Source of the DNA: a virus | Taxonomy: Duplodnaviria; Caudoviricetes | Length of the DNA: 31,759 nt | Strand: one strand, 5' to 3' | Virus record (IMG/VR): IMGVR_UViG_3300030047_000088 | Location: 1 to 31,759 of that record | Part shown: positions 5,861 to 31,332 of the stretch, piece after piece | How the letters are laid out: every line of letters starts with the position of its first letter | Numbering within the stretch: the stretch's first letter is position 1 | The notes under the pieces: generated by a model | The model's input: the letters and a program-made list of their open reading frames with translations, nothing else | Databases searched by the model: none | Told to the model about the DNA's origin: nothing | Program-made: the position numbers and the translations under genes

Positions 5861-6127
5861 TTAATACCCCTTTGCTTTTTGAACTGATTTTTGAACCTGT
5901 GCGTAAGTTGGCAATCTACTTTTCATAGTTTTAACTGCTGACTTAACTTTAGACATTGGTTTAGATGGTTTAGCTGGATTATCCCCATACTTTTTATTGT
6001 ATGCTGGATTATTATAAGCCTTACTATCCATACCCGGCATTGAAGAAGCCTTGCTTTTTAATGGCATAGGTGCTATTTTACTCAATCCTTTAGCAAGTTT
6101 AGTTTGTTGTTGTTGTTGTCCTGTCAT
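5861..6127 (-). CDS. Small basic low-complexity protein
   Basis: 88 aa, K/P/S/M-rich, in the structural operon. Confidence 0.6.
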   Translation of the reverse strand: MTGQQQQQTKLAKGLSKIAPMPLKSKASSMPGMDSKAYNNPAYNKKYGDNPAKPSKPMSKVKSAVKTMKSRLPTYAQVQKSVQKAKGY

Positions 6128-14044: not shown

Positions 14045-14084
14045 ATTATAGCACACTTTAAAAATTGAGCCGGTCTGTGGATAA
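14045..14084 (-). promoter_or_regulatory. Motif promoter plus DnaA box at the head of the packaging operon
   Basis: TTATCCACA (14076-14084), then AATTTT-N6-GTGCTATAAT. Confidence 0.75.
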
Positions 14085-16394: not shown

Positions 16395-17228
16395 TTAGAA
16401 GAATCCGTAAGCAACTTGCAAGCAGGTCAATCCTAAACTACGCCACATTGACACAACTCTATTTCTATCGTCAAATACTGCTAGTATATTATACCTATTT
16501 TTTAAGTGATTGTCAAATATTTCTTTCTTGATGATTGAGTCTTCTCTAGTGTCTCCGGCTTTACGCATAAACAAGTCATCAAAGGGTATATTGTTATTTA
16601 TTAGCCATTCTGTTGTCTCTTTAAAGCAATCATCAGTTCTGCCGGACACGATTATTATAGGTAGCCCGGATGCTTTTAGTATTCTAGCTATCATGGTTAT
16701 ATTATGGTTTGGCAAGTCAGTATTTACTTTTGAATAGTCGAATATATCTCTACCATTATTTAAAGCAAGTGTGCCATCAATGTCAAAGATGTAGCAATTT
16801 TGTTTGTCATCAGAATATTCTGGAGATTTTGGTTTTAGGCATTTATCATACATCCTTTGAATAACTTTTCCACCAACAGATTTTTCTCCACGCTTGGCAT
16901 CACGTTCAATACATTCCAAAAGTGGAACATCGAAGAATTTTATTTCAAAGTCTGAACCTTCTAAGTCTGCCAATTCTTTCCAATATTCTTCATAACCAAA
17001 ATTTGTGTCATCAATAACAACATCACTTTCTATATGAAGAAAATGTGCTACAATATATCTTTCAACATTCTTTATTATTTCTTCATTTTTATGACTCCAT
17101 TGTCCACCATCAACCATAGCACGTAGGTCATCTTTGTTGACACGCTTCCAACCCTTCTTGACAAGTTCAAAAGCGTGTGTTGATTTACCGGATGCTGGAA
17201 GTCCTTTTAGTATTAAGAGTTTAGCCAT
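16395..17228 (-). CDS. pseT: Polynucleotide 5'-kinase/3'-phosphatase (T4 PseT-like)
   Basis: GLPASGKS P-loop, DDLR, IDDTN; HAD FDIDGTLA, SGR, FDDR. Confidence 0.95.
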   Translation of the reverse strand: MAKLLILKGLPASGKSTHAFELVKKGWKRVNKDDLRAMVDGGQWSHKNEEIIKNVERYIVAHFLHIESDVVIDDTNFGYEEYWKELADLEGSDFEIKFFDVPLLECIERDAKRGEKSVGGKVIQRMYDKCLKPKSPEYSDDKQNCYIFDIDGTLALNNGRDIFDYSKVNTDLPNHNITMIARILKASGLPIIIVSGRTDDCFKETTEWLINNNIPFDDLFMRKAGDTREDSIIKKEIFDNHLKNRYNILAVFDDRNRVVSMWRSLGLTCLQVAYGFF

Positions 17229-17949
17229 TTTGTTTTATTTCATAGCTAGAATCATATCTAGTATTTTCTCCTTTCGGATAATCTAACATTAAATTATAAC
17301 CACAACTATTTATCATTTTGTTTTTATCTTCTTCCGTTCCTAAAAACATTAAATATCTATGTTTAGTTCCAAATTTTTCTACGGTCATTCCAAACGATTC
17401 ACAATTTTGTGGCAATGTTTTTGTTTTATCGTAAGAACCAAATTTTTCTGTTACCCATTGTTCAGTTATAGTTTTTCCGTGATAATTTCTACCTTCAAAT
17501 ATATATTTCATATTTTTACCACCAATAGTGGACTTGCCTGTATATATCCAATTCGTTGCTTGATAAATATAACCTTGATGTCCATTACTAGGGTCTGCAA
17601 AACTAACTAAACATAGGGGTCTGTCCGGTATTAACTTTATACACCAAGAAACAAAGAACGAAAGAACGTTTTTACCAAGATTATCATTAACACATAATCT
17701 ATTAAGCTCTAAGGTTTTAACTCTATAACTACCAAAAATACATTTACCATTATTCATTTGAACACACGGCATACCAAAAGTGCAGATACCTTGTAATTTA
17801 TGTTCTTTATCAAATAATCCAAAAGCATATACTACTGGAGCTTTTCTACGAGCATAGTGTTTAAAAAGCATCCATTCAGCAGTTTCTTTGGTATCTATCT
17901 TTTCGATTCTCCAATCTTTTTTATTAAATTGTATTTCTTCTTTTTCCAT
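17221..17949 (-). CDS. mom: Mom-family GNAT DNA (adenine) modification enzyme
   Basis: KHYARR, FGLF, GICTFG.P, ELNRL, VSFADPSNGHQGYIYQATNWIYTG, KHRY, YPKG. Start ATG 17949; the upstream ORF extension is a tRNA. Confidence 0.85.
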   Translation of the reverse strand: MEKEEIQFNKKDWRIEKIDTKETAEWMLFKHYARRKAPVVYAFGLFDKEHKLQGICTFGMPCVQMNNGKCIFGSYRVKTLELNRLCVNDNLGKNVLSFFVSWCIKLIPDRPLCLVSFADPSNGHQGYIYQATNWIYTGKSTIGGKNMKYIFEGRNYHGKTITEQWVTEKFGSYDKTKTLPQNCESFGMTVEKFGTKHRYLMFLGTEEDKNKMINSCGYNLMLDYPKGENTRYDSSYEIKQNG

Positions 17950-17951
17950 TG

Positions 17952-18023
17952 TGCGGTATACTAGGAATTGAACCTGTGTCTCCCCACTGGAAGCGGGGCG
18001 TTCTACTACTAAACTAATACCGC
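17952..18023 (-). tRNA. tRNA-Gly(TCC), atypical
   Basis: GCGGTAT/ATACCGC acceptor; GTTT/GAAC D-stem; CCCCG-CTTCCAG-TGGGG; T-stem ACAGG/CCT(A)GT with a bulge. Confidence 0.85.
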
Positions 18024-18039
18024 ATTTGCTTACATAATT

Positions 18040-18085
18040 AGTATAGCACATTACTAAAATCTAAGCAACTAAAAACTGTGGATAA
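18040..18085 (-). promoter_or_regulatory. Motif promoter plus DnaA box for tRNA-Gly/mom/pseT
   Basis: TTATCCACA (18077-18085); GATTTT-N6-GTGCTATACT. Confidence 0.75.
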
Positions 18086-18088
18086 CTC

Positions 18089-18994
18089 CTATAAATCAGC
18101 AATAGACAAGTTATTTTGGATTATGTCAACAAACACCTGCTTTATCTTTTTACCGCAAATCCTTTTCAGTGTATCGTAATCAATCTTTTTTGCTTTGTTG
18201 GCAATTTCCCACGCTTCTTCGGTTATTAAATCGTGATAAACAGTTCCAATAATTCGGGGAATATGTTTCATATCAAGTTTTTCATTGATTTCCGGTTGCA
18301 ATTTGTTCATTATCTTTTGAACACGTGGAACATCAATATACTTATTACAGATATACATCTCCCAATAACAATCCGAATGTTTATTATTGCCACCAAAAAT
18401 AATTCCATTGTCTTCTTTAAAATCTTCCCGGACAAGTTTTGCATAACACATATCACCGAAAGTATTTTTAAAACTCATATTACGAATAACAATACCCTCT
18501 TTCTTTTCACCTAAAGTAGAAGCTCCTTCCAACATTTTATTTAATTGCTCCACTGTTGGATTATTAATAGAACCCATATCTGGAACTGTGTCAATACCAT
18601 ATTCTTTTCCTACTCCTTGCACAATTTCTTGATTAAAGAATCCTAAATCTTCTTGGTAAATATCAAATAAGTAAAACTTTTTATAAGCCATATTATTATA
18701 GCTTAGTGTGTGTCGGACAAGCCACTCACCATACAATCTAAAATTTGGATGTTCAGTTAATAGTTTTTTGATTCCTTCGTGAGCATTACAGTAATGAACA
18801 GCACCATTGAATTCGTTTCCGTTTTTAGTTAAGTCATTATTACGAGACCCTACACGGACTTCTCCACCATCTCCAAGCCACACTGATAGGTTTGCACCAT
18901 CAATTTTCTCGGTTATAGAACAAGTCCCGGATAGTATTCCTTCGACTTCTTCCTTTCCTAGTCTATGTATTTTTTCATATTTTCTAAATTGCAT
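18089..18994 (-). CDS. ATP-dependent RNA ligase (Rnl2-like)
   Basis: Motif I EKIDGAN, LYGEW, FYLFDI, EGIVIR, YAKLV. Confidence 0.9.
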   Translation of the reverse strand: MQFRKYEKIHRLGKEEVEGILSGTCSITEKIDGANLSVWLGDGGEVRVGSRNNDLTKNGNEFNGAVHYCNAHEGIKKLLTEHPNFRLYGEWLVRHTLSYNNMAYKKFYLFDIYQEDLGFFNQEIVQGVGKEYGIDTVPDMGSINNPTVEQLNKMLEGASTLGEKKEGIVIRNMSFKNTFGDMCYAKLVREDFKEDNGIIFGGNNKHSDCYWEMYICNKYIDVPRVQKIMNKLQPEINEKLDMKHIPRIIGTVYHDLITEEAWEIANKAKKIDYDTLKRICGKKIKQVFVDIIQNNLSIADL

Positions 18995-22094: not shown

Positions 22095-22141
22095 AGTATA
22101 GCAAATTTTTATTCTATTGTAAAGTGCTTACCTGTGGATAA
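22095..22141 (-). promoter_or_regulatory. Sigma70-like promoter plus DnaA box
   Basis: TTATCCACA (22133-22141); TTTACA-17-TATACT. Confidence 0.75.
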
Positions 22142-22756: not shown

Positions 22757-22801
22757 AGTATAGCACATAATAAAAATTGATTACCCACTACCTGTGGATA
22801 A
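22757..22801 (-). promoter_or_regulatory. Motif promoter plus DnaA box upstream of the structured RNA
   Basis: TTATCCACA (22793-22801); AATTTT-N6-GTGCTATACT. Confidence 0.75.
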
Positions 22802-24145: not shown

Positions 24146-24191
24146 TTATCCACAGTCTCCCCTTTCTTTAATTTTATAAATGTGCTATACT
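24146..24191 (+). promoter_or_regulatory. Motif promoter plus DnaA box
   Basis: TTATCCACA (24146-24154); AATTTT-N6-GTGCTATACT; ATG 6 nt later (leaderless-like). Confidence 0.75.
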
Positions 24192-24491: not shown

Positions 24492-24563
24492 GGGGGATTA
24501 GTGCTAGTGGTAACACATCTGCCTTGCACGTAGAAATCTGGAGTTCGATTCTCCAATTCTCCA
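24492..24563 (+). tRNA. tRNA-Ala(TGC)
   Basis: Cloverleaf; G3:U70; TCTGC-CTTGCAC-GTAGA; TTCGATT. Confidence 0.93.
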
Positions 24564-24566
24564 CAT

Positions 24567-24633
24567 ACACTTTCCGCAGGGCGGTGGCGACTCTCCAAAA
24601 GTTGCTTACATAGTTCGAGTCTATGAGAGTGTG
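24567..24633 (+). tRNA. tRNA-Trp(CCA), compact D-arm
   Basis: ACACTTT/AGAGTGT, G73; CCGC-AGG-GCGG; CGACT-CTCCAAA-AGTTG; CATAG-TTCGAGT-CTATG. Confidence 0.8.
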
Positions 24634-24723
24634 CAACCTTAGTCTTTATGACAAGGCAAGAGAATATTCCACTTTTAGTGGATAAGATGTGTGCACACAC
24701 AAATTATTAATATATTCTCTTAT

Positions 24724-24794
24724 GCAATACAGGTGTTTCGGTAGCATTGGTGTTTTCCAAACATTAGGGGTGAGTTCAACTCTCACGTGTTGCA
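24724..24794 (+). tRNA. tRNA-Gly(TCC)
   Basis: GCAATAC/GTGTTGC; GGTGT-TTTCCAA-ACATT; GTGAG-TTCAACT-CTCAC. Confidence 0.88.
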
Positions 24795-24800
24795 CAAAAT

Positions 24801-24871
24801 CTGGGTAAGTTGTTACGGTAGCATAGGTAACTTGGACTTATCAGGCGGTGGTTCGACTCCACCTACCTAGA
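24801..24871 (+). tRNA. tRNA-Pro(TGG)
   Basis: CTGGGTA/TACCTAG, A73; GGTAA-CTTGGAC-TTATC. Confidence 0.9.
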
Positions 24872-24886
24872 CTTGTTCTTTAAAAT

Positions 24887-24959
24887 TCACGGGTCTTCTA
24901 TCTGGTTAGGAAATCGGACTTTGAATCCGAGAAAGGTGGTTCGAAGCCATCCCTGTGAG
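24887..24959 (+). tRNA. tRNA-Gln(TTG)
   Basis: TCACGGG/CCTGTGA, G73; TCGGA-CTTTGAA-TCCGA. Confidence 0.92.
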
Positions 24960-24963
24960 CATT

Positions 24964-25035
24964 GGGTTGTTAGTTCAGAAGATAGAATAGCGGTCTTCGA
25001 AACCGTTGACGAGGGTGCAATTCCTTCACGACCCA
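24964..25035 (+). tRNA. tRNA-Arg(TCG)
   Basis: GGGTTGT/ACGACCC; GCGGT-CTTCGAA-ACCGT; T-loop TGCAATT. Confidence 0.88.
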
Positions 25036-25040
25036 CACAT

Positions 25041-25113
25041 TCCTCTTTAGCATAATTGGTAATGCACCTAGCTGTTAACTAGGATGATGATGGTTCGAAT
25101 CCATCGGGAGGAG
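25041..25113 (+). tRNA. tRNA-Asn(GTT)
   Basis: TCCTCTT/GGGAGGA, G73; CCTAG-CTGTTAA-CTAGG. Confidence 0.94.
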
Positions 25114-25117
25114 CATT

Positions 25118-25188
25118 GGGGCTATGGTTTAGCGGTAAAACGATTCGCTGTCTACGATTAGTCCGGGGTTCGACTCCCCGTAGTCCCG
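25118..25188 (+). tRNA. tRNA-Asp(GTC)
   Basis: GGGGCTA/TAGTCCC, G73; loop CTGTCTA. Confidence 0.9.
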
Positions 25189-25190
25189 CA

Positions 25191-25255
25191 GATGAAAAGG
25201 AAATAAAAAAGTTTCCGAAGTAGTTAATCGAATGGGTTGATACCCCACGTTCATC
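25191..25255 (+). ncRNA. Non-tRNA structured RNA in the tRNA array
   Basis: GATGAA/TTCATC closing stem; GGAAAT/GTTTCC and TGGG/CCCA hairpins. Confidence 0.5.
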
Positions 25256-25275
25256 GCAAGATGTTATAAAATCAA

Positions 25276-25419
25276 ATGAACCACAAAAGAAAGAAAAATA
25301 AAAAAAGAAAAATTTTACGTATGATGAAAATGTATGGTGGGGGAAAAGGTGCAACCAAACAAAATAAAATTTATTACGGTTTAGATAAATATGGGGATTC
25401 TGGTGTAGTAGAAGCATAA
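25276..25419 (+). CDS. Small basic protein (47 aa) overlapping the tRNA-His 5' end
   Basis: Manual: MNHKRKKNKKRKILRMMKMYGGGKGATKQNKIYYGLDKYGDSGVVEA. Confidence 0.5.
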   Translation: MNHKRKKNKKRKILRMMKMYGGGKGATKQNKIYYGLDKYGDSGVVEA

Positions 25420-25464
25420 TGCTTTGTGAAAGCATCGGGTAGAGTGCAAATCTCTAGCTTCCCA
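25393..25464 (+). tRNA. tRNA-His(GTG), imperfect acceptor stem
   Basis: ATGCT-TTGTGAA-AGCAT; TAGAG/CTCTA; two acceptor mismatches; G-1 opposite A73. Confidence 0.72.
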
Positions 25465-25469
25465 CAATT

Positions 25470-25540
25470 CTCTTTGTAGCTTAGTGGAAAAGCAGTGGAC
25501 TTTTAATCCATCGACGGTAGTCCGATTCTACCCAGAGAGA
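25470..25540 (+). tRNA. tRNA-Lys(TTT)
   Basis: CTCTTTG/CAGAGAG; GTGGA-CTTTTAA-TCCAT; T-loop TCCGATT. Confidence 0.9.
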
Positions 25541-25561
25541 CAAGTTTTTTGAAAAAAGAAT

Positions 25562-25629
25562 AGCGGGAGTTCCGGTGAACGTTTGGGTCTCATAAGCCCG
25601 ATAGTGGAGCTCGACACTCCATCCCGCTA
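25562..25629 (+). tRNA. tRNA-Met(CAT), compact D-arm
   Basis: AGCGGGA/TCCCGCT; GTTC-CGGT-GAAC; TGGGT-CTCATAA-GCCCG; TGGAG/CTCCA. Confidence 0.8.
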
Positions 25630-25634
25630 CATTA

Positions 25635-25705
25635 GCCGGATTAGTTCAACGGTAGAACAGTTGATTTGTAATCTCCAGATTTGTGTTCGATTCACAAATT
25701 CGGCT
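25635..25705 (+). tRNA. tRNA-Thr(TGT), two anticodon-stem mismatches
   Basis: GCCGGAT/ATTCGGC; GTTGA-TTTGTAA-TCTCC; TTCGATT. Confidence 0.8.
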
Positions 25706-25709
25706 CAAT

Positions 25710-25761
25710 GCCTTAGTAGCCAAGTGGCAAAAGCATCCGTTTGCAAAACGGACAACGTGGG
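25710..25761 (+). pseudogene. tRNA-Cys(GCA) 5' fragment, truncated in the T-arm
   Basis: GCCTTAG-TA-D arm-TCCGT-TTGCAAA-ACGGA-CAAC-GTGGG, then coding sequence; no CCCAC/CTAAGGC 3' half follows. Confidence 0.8.
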
Positions 25762-26014
25762 ATTTTATCTAAAAAATAATTCTTCTGGAAAATCACACTA
25801 CCTCAAACTTAGATTATTTAAAGATGGTATTAAGGAGAAGAAGTGTGAAAAGTGTAAATTAAGTGTATGGATGGGAGAAGAAATGGTTTTAGAATTAGAC
25901 CACAAAAACGAAAACCATTTTGATAATAGGTTAAATAATTTAGAGGTTTTGTGCCCGAATTGCCACGCACAAAAAACAAGAAAAGCGAGATTGGCGAAAA
26001 AGAATACGCACTAG
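25757..26014 (+). CDS. HNH endonuclease (probably N-terminally truncated)
   Basis: KCEKC...W.G....LELDHKN....DNRLNNLEVLCPNCH; possible GTG start inside the tRNA-Cys T-stem. Confidence 0.8.
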   Translation: MGFYLKNNSSGKSHYLKLRLFKDGIKEKKCEKCKLSVWMGEEMVLELDHKNENHFDNRLNNLEVLCPNCHAQKTRKARLAKKNTH

Positions 26015-26067
26015 TTTTAGAAACTAGCGGGGGAAACCCCATACAGGTGCAATTCCTGTATCTCGCA
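25985..26067 (+). tRNA. tRNA-Leu(TAG)
   Basis: GCGAGAT/ATCTCGC, A73; CTAGT-TTTAGAA-ACTAG; variable arm GGGG-GAAA-CCCC. Confidence 0.9.
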
Positions 26068-26073
26068 CAATAG

Positions 26074-26118
26074 TTATCCACAGTTTTATTAAGGTCAATT
26101 TTAGTAGTGTGCTATACT
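26074..26118 (+). promoter_or_regulatory. Motif promoter plus DnaA box
   Basis: TTATCCACA (26074-26082); AATTTT-N6-GTGCTATACT; ATG 6 nt later. Confidence 0.75.
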
Positions 26119-31279: not shown

Positions 31280-31332
31280 ATTATAGCACAAAACTAAAAT
31301 TGGGGTGTGGAAAACTATCCATTTGTGGATAA
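31280..31332 (-). promoter_or_regulatory. Motif promoter plus tandem DnaA boxes upstream of the holin
   Basis: TTATCCACA (31324-31332), TTTTCCACA (31306-31314), AATTTT-N6-GTGCTATAAT. Confidence 0.72.

Follow-up and report, generated by a model that had tools for sequence, protein, structure and literature searches.

A bulged tRNA-Gly family linked to viral mom genes, and its candidate role as a glycine donor for DNA modification

The window analyzed here is the full 31,759-nt stretch of the IMG/VR record IMGVR_UViG_3300030047_000088 (Caudoviricetes), a linear virus sequence of 31.8 kb that is 35% complete; all coordinates refer to the whole stretch. On its minus strand, a tRNA-Gly(TCC) gene with a bulged T-stem (17952..18023; ARAGORN and Rfam, 54 bits) and a mom-family gene encoding 242 aa (17221..17949) lie between an RNA ligase gene (18089..18994; PF09414) and a PNKP gene (16395..17228; PF25109 and AAA_33), all in the minus orientation. 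This is the arrangement given by a first-pass annotation, made from the sequence by a model, and the same calls support its placement of the tRNA at 18023-17952. The discriminator base A73 at 17952 is followed by C, A and then the mom ATG at 17949, so that the 2-nt gap reported earlier is indeed present, and at the far end of mom its stop and the PNKP start share 8 nt. In the ORF list, the mom frame also extends upstream across the tRNA without a stop, as far as an ATG at 18051 inside the putative promoter. An array of tRNA genes begins 6.47 kb from the bulged tRNA-Gly on the opposite strand and contains a conventional, unbulged tRNA-Gly(TCC) (24724..24794, plus strand; ARAGORN/Rfam calls), in keeping with the distance of about 6.5 kb and the opposite orientation noted before. 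This array gene is our internal comparator.

A likely promoter (18040..18068, minus strand), recognized by its sequence and the recurrence of its motifs, consists of a weak -35 element (TTGCTT, 3/6 matches), a 17-nt spacer and an extended -10 element (TG-c-TATACT), and ends 16 nt before the bulged tRNA-Gly. Upstream of it is a box, TTATCCACA (18077..18085, minus strand), which we take to be the DnaA-box consensus. The box occurs in 7 copies in the window versus 0.44 expected, and TGTGCTATACT occurs in 10 copies at ≤1 mismatch versus 0.51 expected; both stand just upstream of the bulged tRNA-Gly, and most copies of the box precede a TGTGCTATAcT element by 30-45 nt. The promoter proposed in the first-pass annotation is absent from a consensus promoter scan of the window, but because both elements recur far above chance we judge it likely, and promoter, tRNA and mom would then be co-transcribed. 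The window more generally contains a repeated class of promoter-like sites in which TTATCCACA lies ~30-45 nt before TGTGCTATA(C/A)T (14045-14084, 18040-18085, 22095-22141, 22757-22801, 24146-24191, 26074-26118 and 31280-31332), and some copies start nearly leaderless genes.

The gap between ligase and PNKP in the window is 860 nt and holds exactly the promoter, the tRNA and mom. In a related record (L674) with a ligase 86% identical to that of the window, PNKP follows 27 nt behind, and both the tRNA and mom are absent from the record, which is 41% complete. In a 50% relative (L675), ligase and PNKP overlap, again without tRNA or mom. Because tRNA and mom are both missing in these relatives, the tRNA goes with mom and not with the repair pair. 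We thus regard the putative promoter, the tRNA and mom as one 860-nt cassette on comparative grounds, and the earlier reading of an insertion between ligase and PNKP holds.

The Mom-like nature of the ORF, as first annotated, is borne out by sequence and fold. Its product matches the Pfam Mom family PF25680 (E 2.9e-35, 122 bits; curated cut-off 27.1), phrog_1384 (E 1e-48) and the sequence of the Mu Mom crystal structure 8bv8, and the top two fold matches of its predicted model (pLDDT 93) are both 8bv8 (TM 0.64/0.69, E 1.5e-11). By these sequence and model comparisons the ORF belongs to the Mom family. The model has a GNAT fold with a hairpin and two helices at residues 147-192, a segment probably equivalent to the Mu Mom insertion. 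Six of the seven listed active-site residues of Mu Mom are kept: R111, S124, H58, Y59, D149 and Y159 correspond to R84, S97, H31, Y32, D119 and Y129 of the window protein, and each is invariant in 117/117 aligned sequences. The exception is R151, which is S121 in the window (column N 66, T 19, S 17, F 5; n=117); Mu W48 and W181 are also not kept. In Mu Mom, an R151 alanine mutant is inactive, glycine is moved from Gly-tRNA-Gly to dA, and all three E. coli tRNA-Gly isoacceptors serve the enzyme (PMC13219725); this is the recent work to which the first-pass annotation had referred. By analogy, we infer that the window enzyme shares this chemistry and makes 6-NcmdA from Gly-tRNA-Gly.

The bulged tRNA-Gly retains the bases needed for glycine charging. 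G1-C72, C2-G71, C35 and C36 are all present, as had been claimed, with the anticodon TCC at 17989..17991 (minus strand) supplying C35 and C36; these are the bases of the GlyRS identity set in bacterial tRNA-Gly (PMC9976931). The Rfam alignment inserts A 17962 (minus strand) into the 3' T-stem strand between positions 63 and 64, which agrees with the bulge read from the sequence earlier, and the adjoining pairs are A49-U65, C50-G64 and A51-U63. The combination of A49-U65 with A51-U63 is found in 0/119 control tRNA-Gly, and the comparator in the array has G49-C65, U50-A64 and G51-C63 together with a D-loop GG. The anticodon loop of the bulged tRNA is canonical, with 7 nt (CU-UCC-AG), and there is no encoded CCA. 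The usual bacterial discriminator is U73; both tRNA-Gly genes of the window carry A73, as do 5/10 tRNA-Gly from four Patescibacteria bins and 13/122 control loci, so this base is likely host-specific. The D-loop GG is absent, as first described, but it is also missing in 3/11 array tRNAs (Arg, His, Leu) and present in most of the bulged family described below; the first-pass argument from the D-loop is weak. In similarity, the window tRNA is as near to ordinary tRNA-Gly (0.67-0.74) as to the bulged family (0.67), and its bulge could therefore have arisen independently. A narrow sequence pattern for close relatives returned a near-identical record only. Minimum-energy folding gave no cloverleaf for either tRNA-Gly of the window, and folding was left unused.

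Bulged tRNA-Gly genes of this kind form a family that is tightly linked to mom. With a protein-blind DNA pattern (CCA, 13 N, T-loop, bulged A, acceptor end), 120 viral loci were taken from an estimated 320, and the same pattern without the bulge gave 122 control loci taken from an estimated 6400. A locus counted as mom-adjacent when mom was encoded on the same strand no more than 60 nt away; the tRNA was masked prior to protein searching, and both sets were searched with one profile. Among the loci listed, mom was adjacent to 102/120 bulged-pattern loci and 0/122 unbulged ones, which is the enrichment that the first-pass annotation had asked to be checked. The rate was alike for loci with 1.5-kb flanks (68/80) and 300-nt flanks (34/40), and dereplication left 62/76 versus 0/94. 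Among representatives that truly pair in the bulged register, adjacency rises to 62/68, and the 6/68 with no mom nearby are on records 14-66% complete. Three distant mom neighbors submitted to Pfam were confirmed; in the control records searched whole, a Mom match occurs anywhere in 2/29. Because this first pattern fixes the anticodon and acceptor end, a second pattern consisting of the 18-nt T-arm alone was also used. It placed 105/120 loci next to mom, and its 62 adjacent representatives carry features that it does not select: CC in the loop (61), G71-C72 (62), U73 (60) and CCA (40). Many contigs are common to both pattern sets, which are not independent. In the window locus, the A is bulged at 63/64, the three flanking pairs form, the acceptor is that of tRNA-Gly and mom lies within 60 nt, as in the family; its family-model score of 63.9 bits is circular, as a copy of the locus is in the training set.

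The position of the RNA relative to mom varies, from before the gene to inside its start, inside its end or behind it (32 of the 62 representatives before, 30 behind), which fits a product acting in trans. In 48/62 representatives the mom ORF runs through the RNA in the GGSIPT frame, and 13/62 interrupt the mom frame with a stop; the window copy is the sole one that is open in another frame. No ATG occurs within 30 nt after the RNA in 25 representatives, and at one locus (L237) the same CA-ATG junction starts a non-mom gene. In a Mom relative 88% identical to the window protein (P0002), the annotated start falls inside its own upstream tRNA, and the N-terminal peptide implies, as judged from protein only, a tRNA that retains the additional T-stem base and a D-loop GG and has changed in a compensatory way at 50-64.

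The family behaves as a structured RNA. A plain alignment of 73/89 representatives, with 16 length variants left out, shows pairing in 98.7% of cells of the acceptor, D and T stems and stem covariation of 0.605, compared with 0.175 in shuffled and ≤0.165 in slid alignments. Fitting all 89 to the model adds the anticodon stem, at 92.8%. In 62/62 representatives, the three T-stem pairs that flank the bulge form in the bulged register, so the conserved bulge that was proposed as a check is found, at a fixed position and with covariation; the T-stem consensus consists of G-C-rich pairs. The family keeps the glycine-charging marks (G1-C72, C2-G71, CC), and its T-stem and anticodon loop are deformed: a heuristic arm finder detects a canonical anticodon loop in 12/89 members versus 93/101 controls, leaving 77/89 non-canonical. 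The D-loop GG is kept in 75/89 members, which makes its loss private to the window copy, and we rejected GG loss as a mark of the family. At the level of sequence, we conclude that the association of bulged tRNA-Gly with mom is real, non-random and family-wide. Seven family members of 66-67 nt (L221, L304, L536, L570, L602, L619 and L635) seemingly have lost most of the D-arm. Another RNA that shares the bulged T-arm, found identically in several records (L519, L542, L550, L610, L624 and L628), has neither a Gly acceptor nor a mom within reach. Two fragments without mom (L204:1500-1575 and L273:1467-1540) have a tRNA-Gly-like gene flanked on one side by a ParB-like gene and on the other by a short one that, by eye, resembles a terminase small subunit.

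Viewed from the protein, the tRNA is an uncommon companion. Locus searches that began with Mom returned mostly tRNA-less relatives, and the bulged family surfaced only via the RNA-first patterns. Among 91 dereplicated relatives selected by protein, five have an adjacent tRNA-Gly-like gene, as judged by family-model searches of 236 loci together with inspection, and only one of these (L084) is bulged; 5/91 is if anything high, as tRNA-bearing loci were preferred as representatives. In a FastTree tree of 113 proteins, whose 45 tRNA-less rows are a random sample, the window Mom groups in a clade of 28 rows, of which 22 lack a tRNA, and tRNA-bearing Moms are spread over several deep branches. The term "self-supplying" in the first-pass annotation is therefore too strong, since most close Mom relatives are without a tRNA and Mu Mom uses three E. 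coli isoacceptors. In cultured phages, the bulged RNA was found in 0/12 mom loci sampled from 290 records, and an unbulged tRNA-Gly-like neighbor in 2/12. Blastn of family tRNAs against cultured phages gave, among the 40 of 84 rows listed, ordinary tRNA-Ala matches; further matches were one weak plasmid match and one true match, to Salinibacter phage B2_17, the single cultured phage found with the bulged form. Its bulged member (L671:1965-2573; 76 bits) is annotated as a plain tRNA-Gly and sits behind a mom gene that seems frameshifted in the deposited record.

Unbulged tRNA-Gly genes adjoin some mom genes as well (L093, L090, L019). A second mom-linked type, unbulged and with a G7.A66 mismatch (L019, L108, L661), occurs once before each of two mom genes (L019:4905-4976, 5958-6029), twice at 1.4 kb upstream of four mom genes in a row (L108:613-788) and on the strand opposite mom in Microbacterium phage Dropshot (L661:1251-1322). 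In Arthrobacter phage Shade, an unannotated tRNA-Gly-like gene lies over the mom stop codon (L660:1141-1211); it is unbulged, with the loop AUUCCGU and no D-loop GG, and offers a cultured test system. Just upstream of two further mom genes are more degenerate elements: in L018 a cloverleaf whose T-loop is non-standard and which has an ACC loop, in L155 a shortened, GC-rich fold resembling an acceptor.

Three known systems bear on the locus. Mu Mom (8bv8; PMC13219725) shares the Pfam family, the fold, six active-site residues and an insertion at the matching place, but it is only ~24% identical and differs at R151, W48 and W181. Mu uses host tRNA-Gly (PMC13219725), whereas the window mom has its own adjacent tRNA-Gly; in the Mu-like SfMu, no tRNA was found beside mom. 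A precedent for the RNA was described in 2011 in Dehalococcoides ssrA islands: a 'pseudo-tRNA' of 76 bp, tRNA-Gly-like and with a 'DCC' anticodon, lies within the opening 150 bp of their mom homologue (PMC3146451). Like the bulged family, it is a conserved tRNA-Gly-like cloverleaf with a variable first anticodon base and is tied to mom; unlike the window tRNA, which is free-standing with a downstream ATG, it is embedded in the gene. The available text of PMC3146451, whose figure is an image, gives neither a function nor a T-stem bulge for this element. The non-proteogenic tRNA-Gly NP1-3 of S. aureus have A49-U65, U50-A64 and A51-U63 pairs and have lost G18/G19; they are charged by ordinary GlyRS and feed the Fem/FmhB GNAT-fold transferase, which EF-Tu inhibits less with these tRNAs (PMC7826273, PMC4574755). 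The window tRNA has two of their three weak T-stem pairs, with C50-G64 as the third, and a bulge in addition, which the available text of those papers does not mention for NP1-3. Their GG loss is seen in the window copy but not in the family (75/89 keep GG), and they are chromosomal and serve cell-wall peptides, whereas the window tRNA is viral and sits beside a DNA-modifying gene. A literature search, thin in its coverage of subscription journals, found no proposal of a dedicated donor tRNA for Mom and no description of the bulge.

Based on the linkage to mom, the retained charging marks, the deformed T-stem and the homology of the enzyme, we think it probable, with real room for doubt, that the bulged tRNA-Gly is a glycine donor reserved for Mom that escapes EF-Tu. 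We propose that a single transcript containing tRNA and mom would start from the promoter at 18068-18040. The tRNA would be released by the same host steps as the array tRNAs, namely RNase P cleavage, trimming of the 3' end and addition of CCA, and the mom message left behind would have only 2 nt ahead of its AUG. All 11 array tRNAs examined lack an encoded CCA, CA follows 10/11 of them, as it does the bulged tRNA, and an SD-like motif is present in only 4/29 window genes and missing in 25/29, which makes the same processing and a near-leaderless mom message plausible. Host GlyRS is expected to charge the tRNA via G1-C72, C2-G71, G3-C70, C35 and C36, all of which are seen. EF-Tu affinity is set by the pairs 49-65, 50-64 and 51-63 (PMC11231383), and the bulge together with A49-U65 and A51-U63 is predicted to weaken binding; the literature examined, in the portions available, contained no EF-Tu-binding measurement for a 63/64 bulge. 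Mom would then move glycine to N6 of dA, with rearrangement to 6-NcmdA, a reaction demonstrated for Mu Mom only. The cassette likely modifies phage adenines against host restriction, and the tRNA would be an optional booster rather than a required part. Every step of the first-pass proposal that a genome can test came out as predicted. Several observations weigh against the donor reading: A73, the canonical anticodon loop, the equal closeness of the window tRNA to ordinary tRNA-Gly, the absence of R151, the low number of adjacent tRNAs (5/91), the many tRNA-less members in the clade of the window Mom, bulged copies with no mom nearby and the use of host tRNAs by Mu. A more speculative extension, to which we give perhaps a quarter of our belief, is a phage class of donor-only tRNAs in which the T-stem bulge both excludes EF-Tu and is a positive signal for Mom, and which travels with many Mom lineages, often inside the mom coding sequence, so that a transcript would yield either enzyme or co-substrate.

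Among rival explanations, the cloverleaf could act in cis on the mom message, as a processing signal that either generates or degrades the mRNA, or as a decoy for Mom or GlyRS that limits expression of a potentially host-harmful enzyme. Excision of the tRNA would break the message in many relatives, where the RNA is in the mom frame (48/62) or has no nearby ATG behind it (25 representatives), and in the window the AUG lies 2 nt behind the 3' cut site in a genome with few SD-like motifs. A cis element is nonetheless unlikely, as the RNA is found 5', 3', inside and outside of mom, and in Dropshot on the opposite strand; U73 and CCA (40/62) are kept without having been selected, charging marks persist while decoding marks decay, and the L237 junction serves a gene other than mom. 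Slightly less likely still is an extra, ribosome-competent tRNA-Gly that refills a pool drained by Mom, the bulge being merely tolerated. The canonical CU-UCC-AG loop of the window copy, the prevalence of GGA as the commonest Gly codon (180/316 in 11 ORFs) and the unbulged tRNA-Gly beside some mom genes (L093, L090, L019) would suit this role, but the array already supplies tRNA-Gly(TCC), 77/89 family members have non-canonical loops, and a tRNA in this role would not retain a bulge fixed at the pairs that EF-Tu contacts.

It is improbable that the RNA is a leftover, whether a captured tRNA gene or an attachment-site remnant, retained mostly as the GGSIPT peptide. Most pattern-found relatives do translate it in one frame and most close Mom relatives do without it; against this, compensatory changes occur in all four stems (one of the alignments being model-fitted), the whole cloverleaf is retained at non-coding positions, and the window tRNA is translated, if at all, in another frame. 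We rejected a link to RNA repair, in which the tRNA would be a nuclease-resistant substitute for a cut host tRNA-Gly within the ligase-PNKP module, and hold it to be very improbable: the tRNA does sit between the two genes, but in L674 and L675 they adjoin each other without tRNA or mom, and the family follows mom.

If the donor reading is correct, it addresses a difficulty left by the Mu Mom paper (PMC13219725), whose available text assumes that the enzyme scavenges the host Gly-tRNA pool; charged tRNA in that pool is almost entirely bound by EF-Tu. A tRNA linked to the gene, charged yet kept out of decoding, would account for the way in which many phages bypass this competition. It would also carry the use of dedicated non-ribosomal tRNAs beyond cell-wall synthesis into DNA modification, and would provide a natural single-base antideterminant for EF-Tu. 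The window locus is a clean test case, with a free-standing, nearly canonical tRNA and a normal tRNA-Gly of the same anticodon as control.

The array that contains this control includes further tRNA-like sequences. Within 25710-26014, a tRNA-Cys-like gene (GCA loop), called by neither ARAGORN nor Rfam, seemingly breaks off at its T-arm, and an HNH frame (PF01844) comes next. At 25563-25630 lies a further uncalled tRNA-like gene, which has a CAT anticodon and a short D-arm; a tRNA-Trp(CCA) at 24565-24634 was called by ARAGORN alone. The array (24492-26067) without encoded CCA, the rare SD motifs and A73 together hint at a Patescibacteria host.
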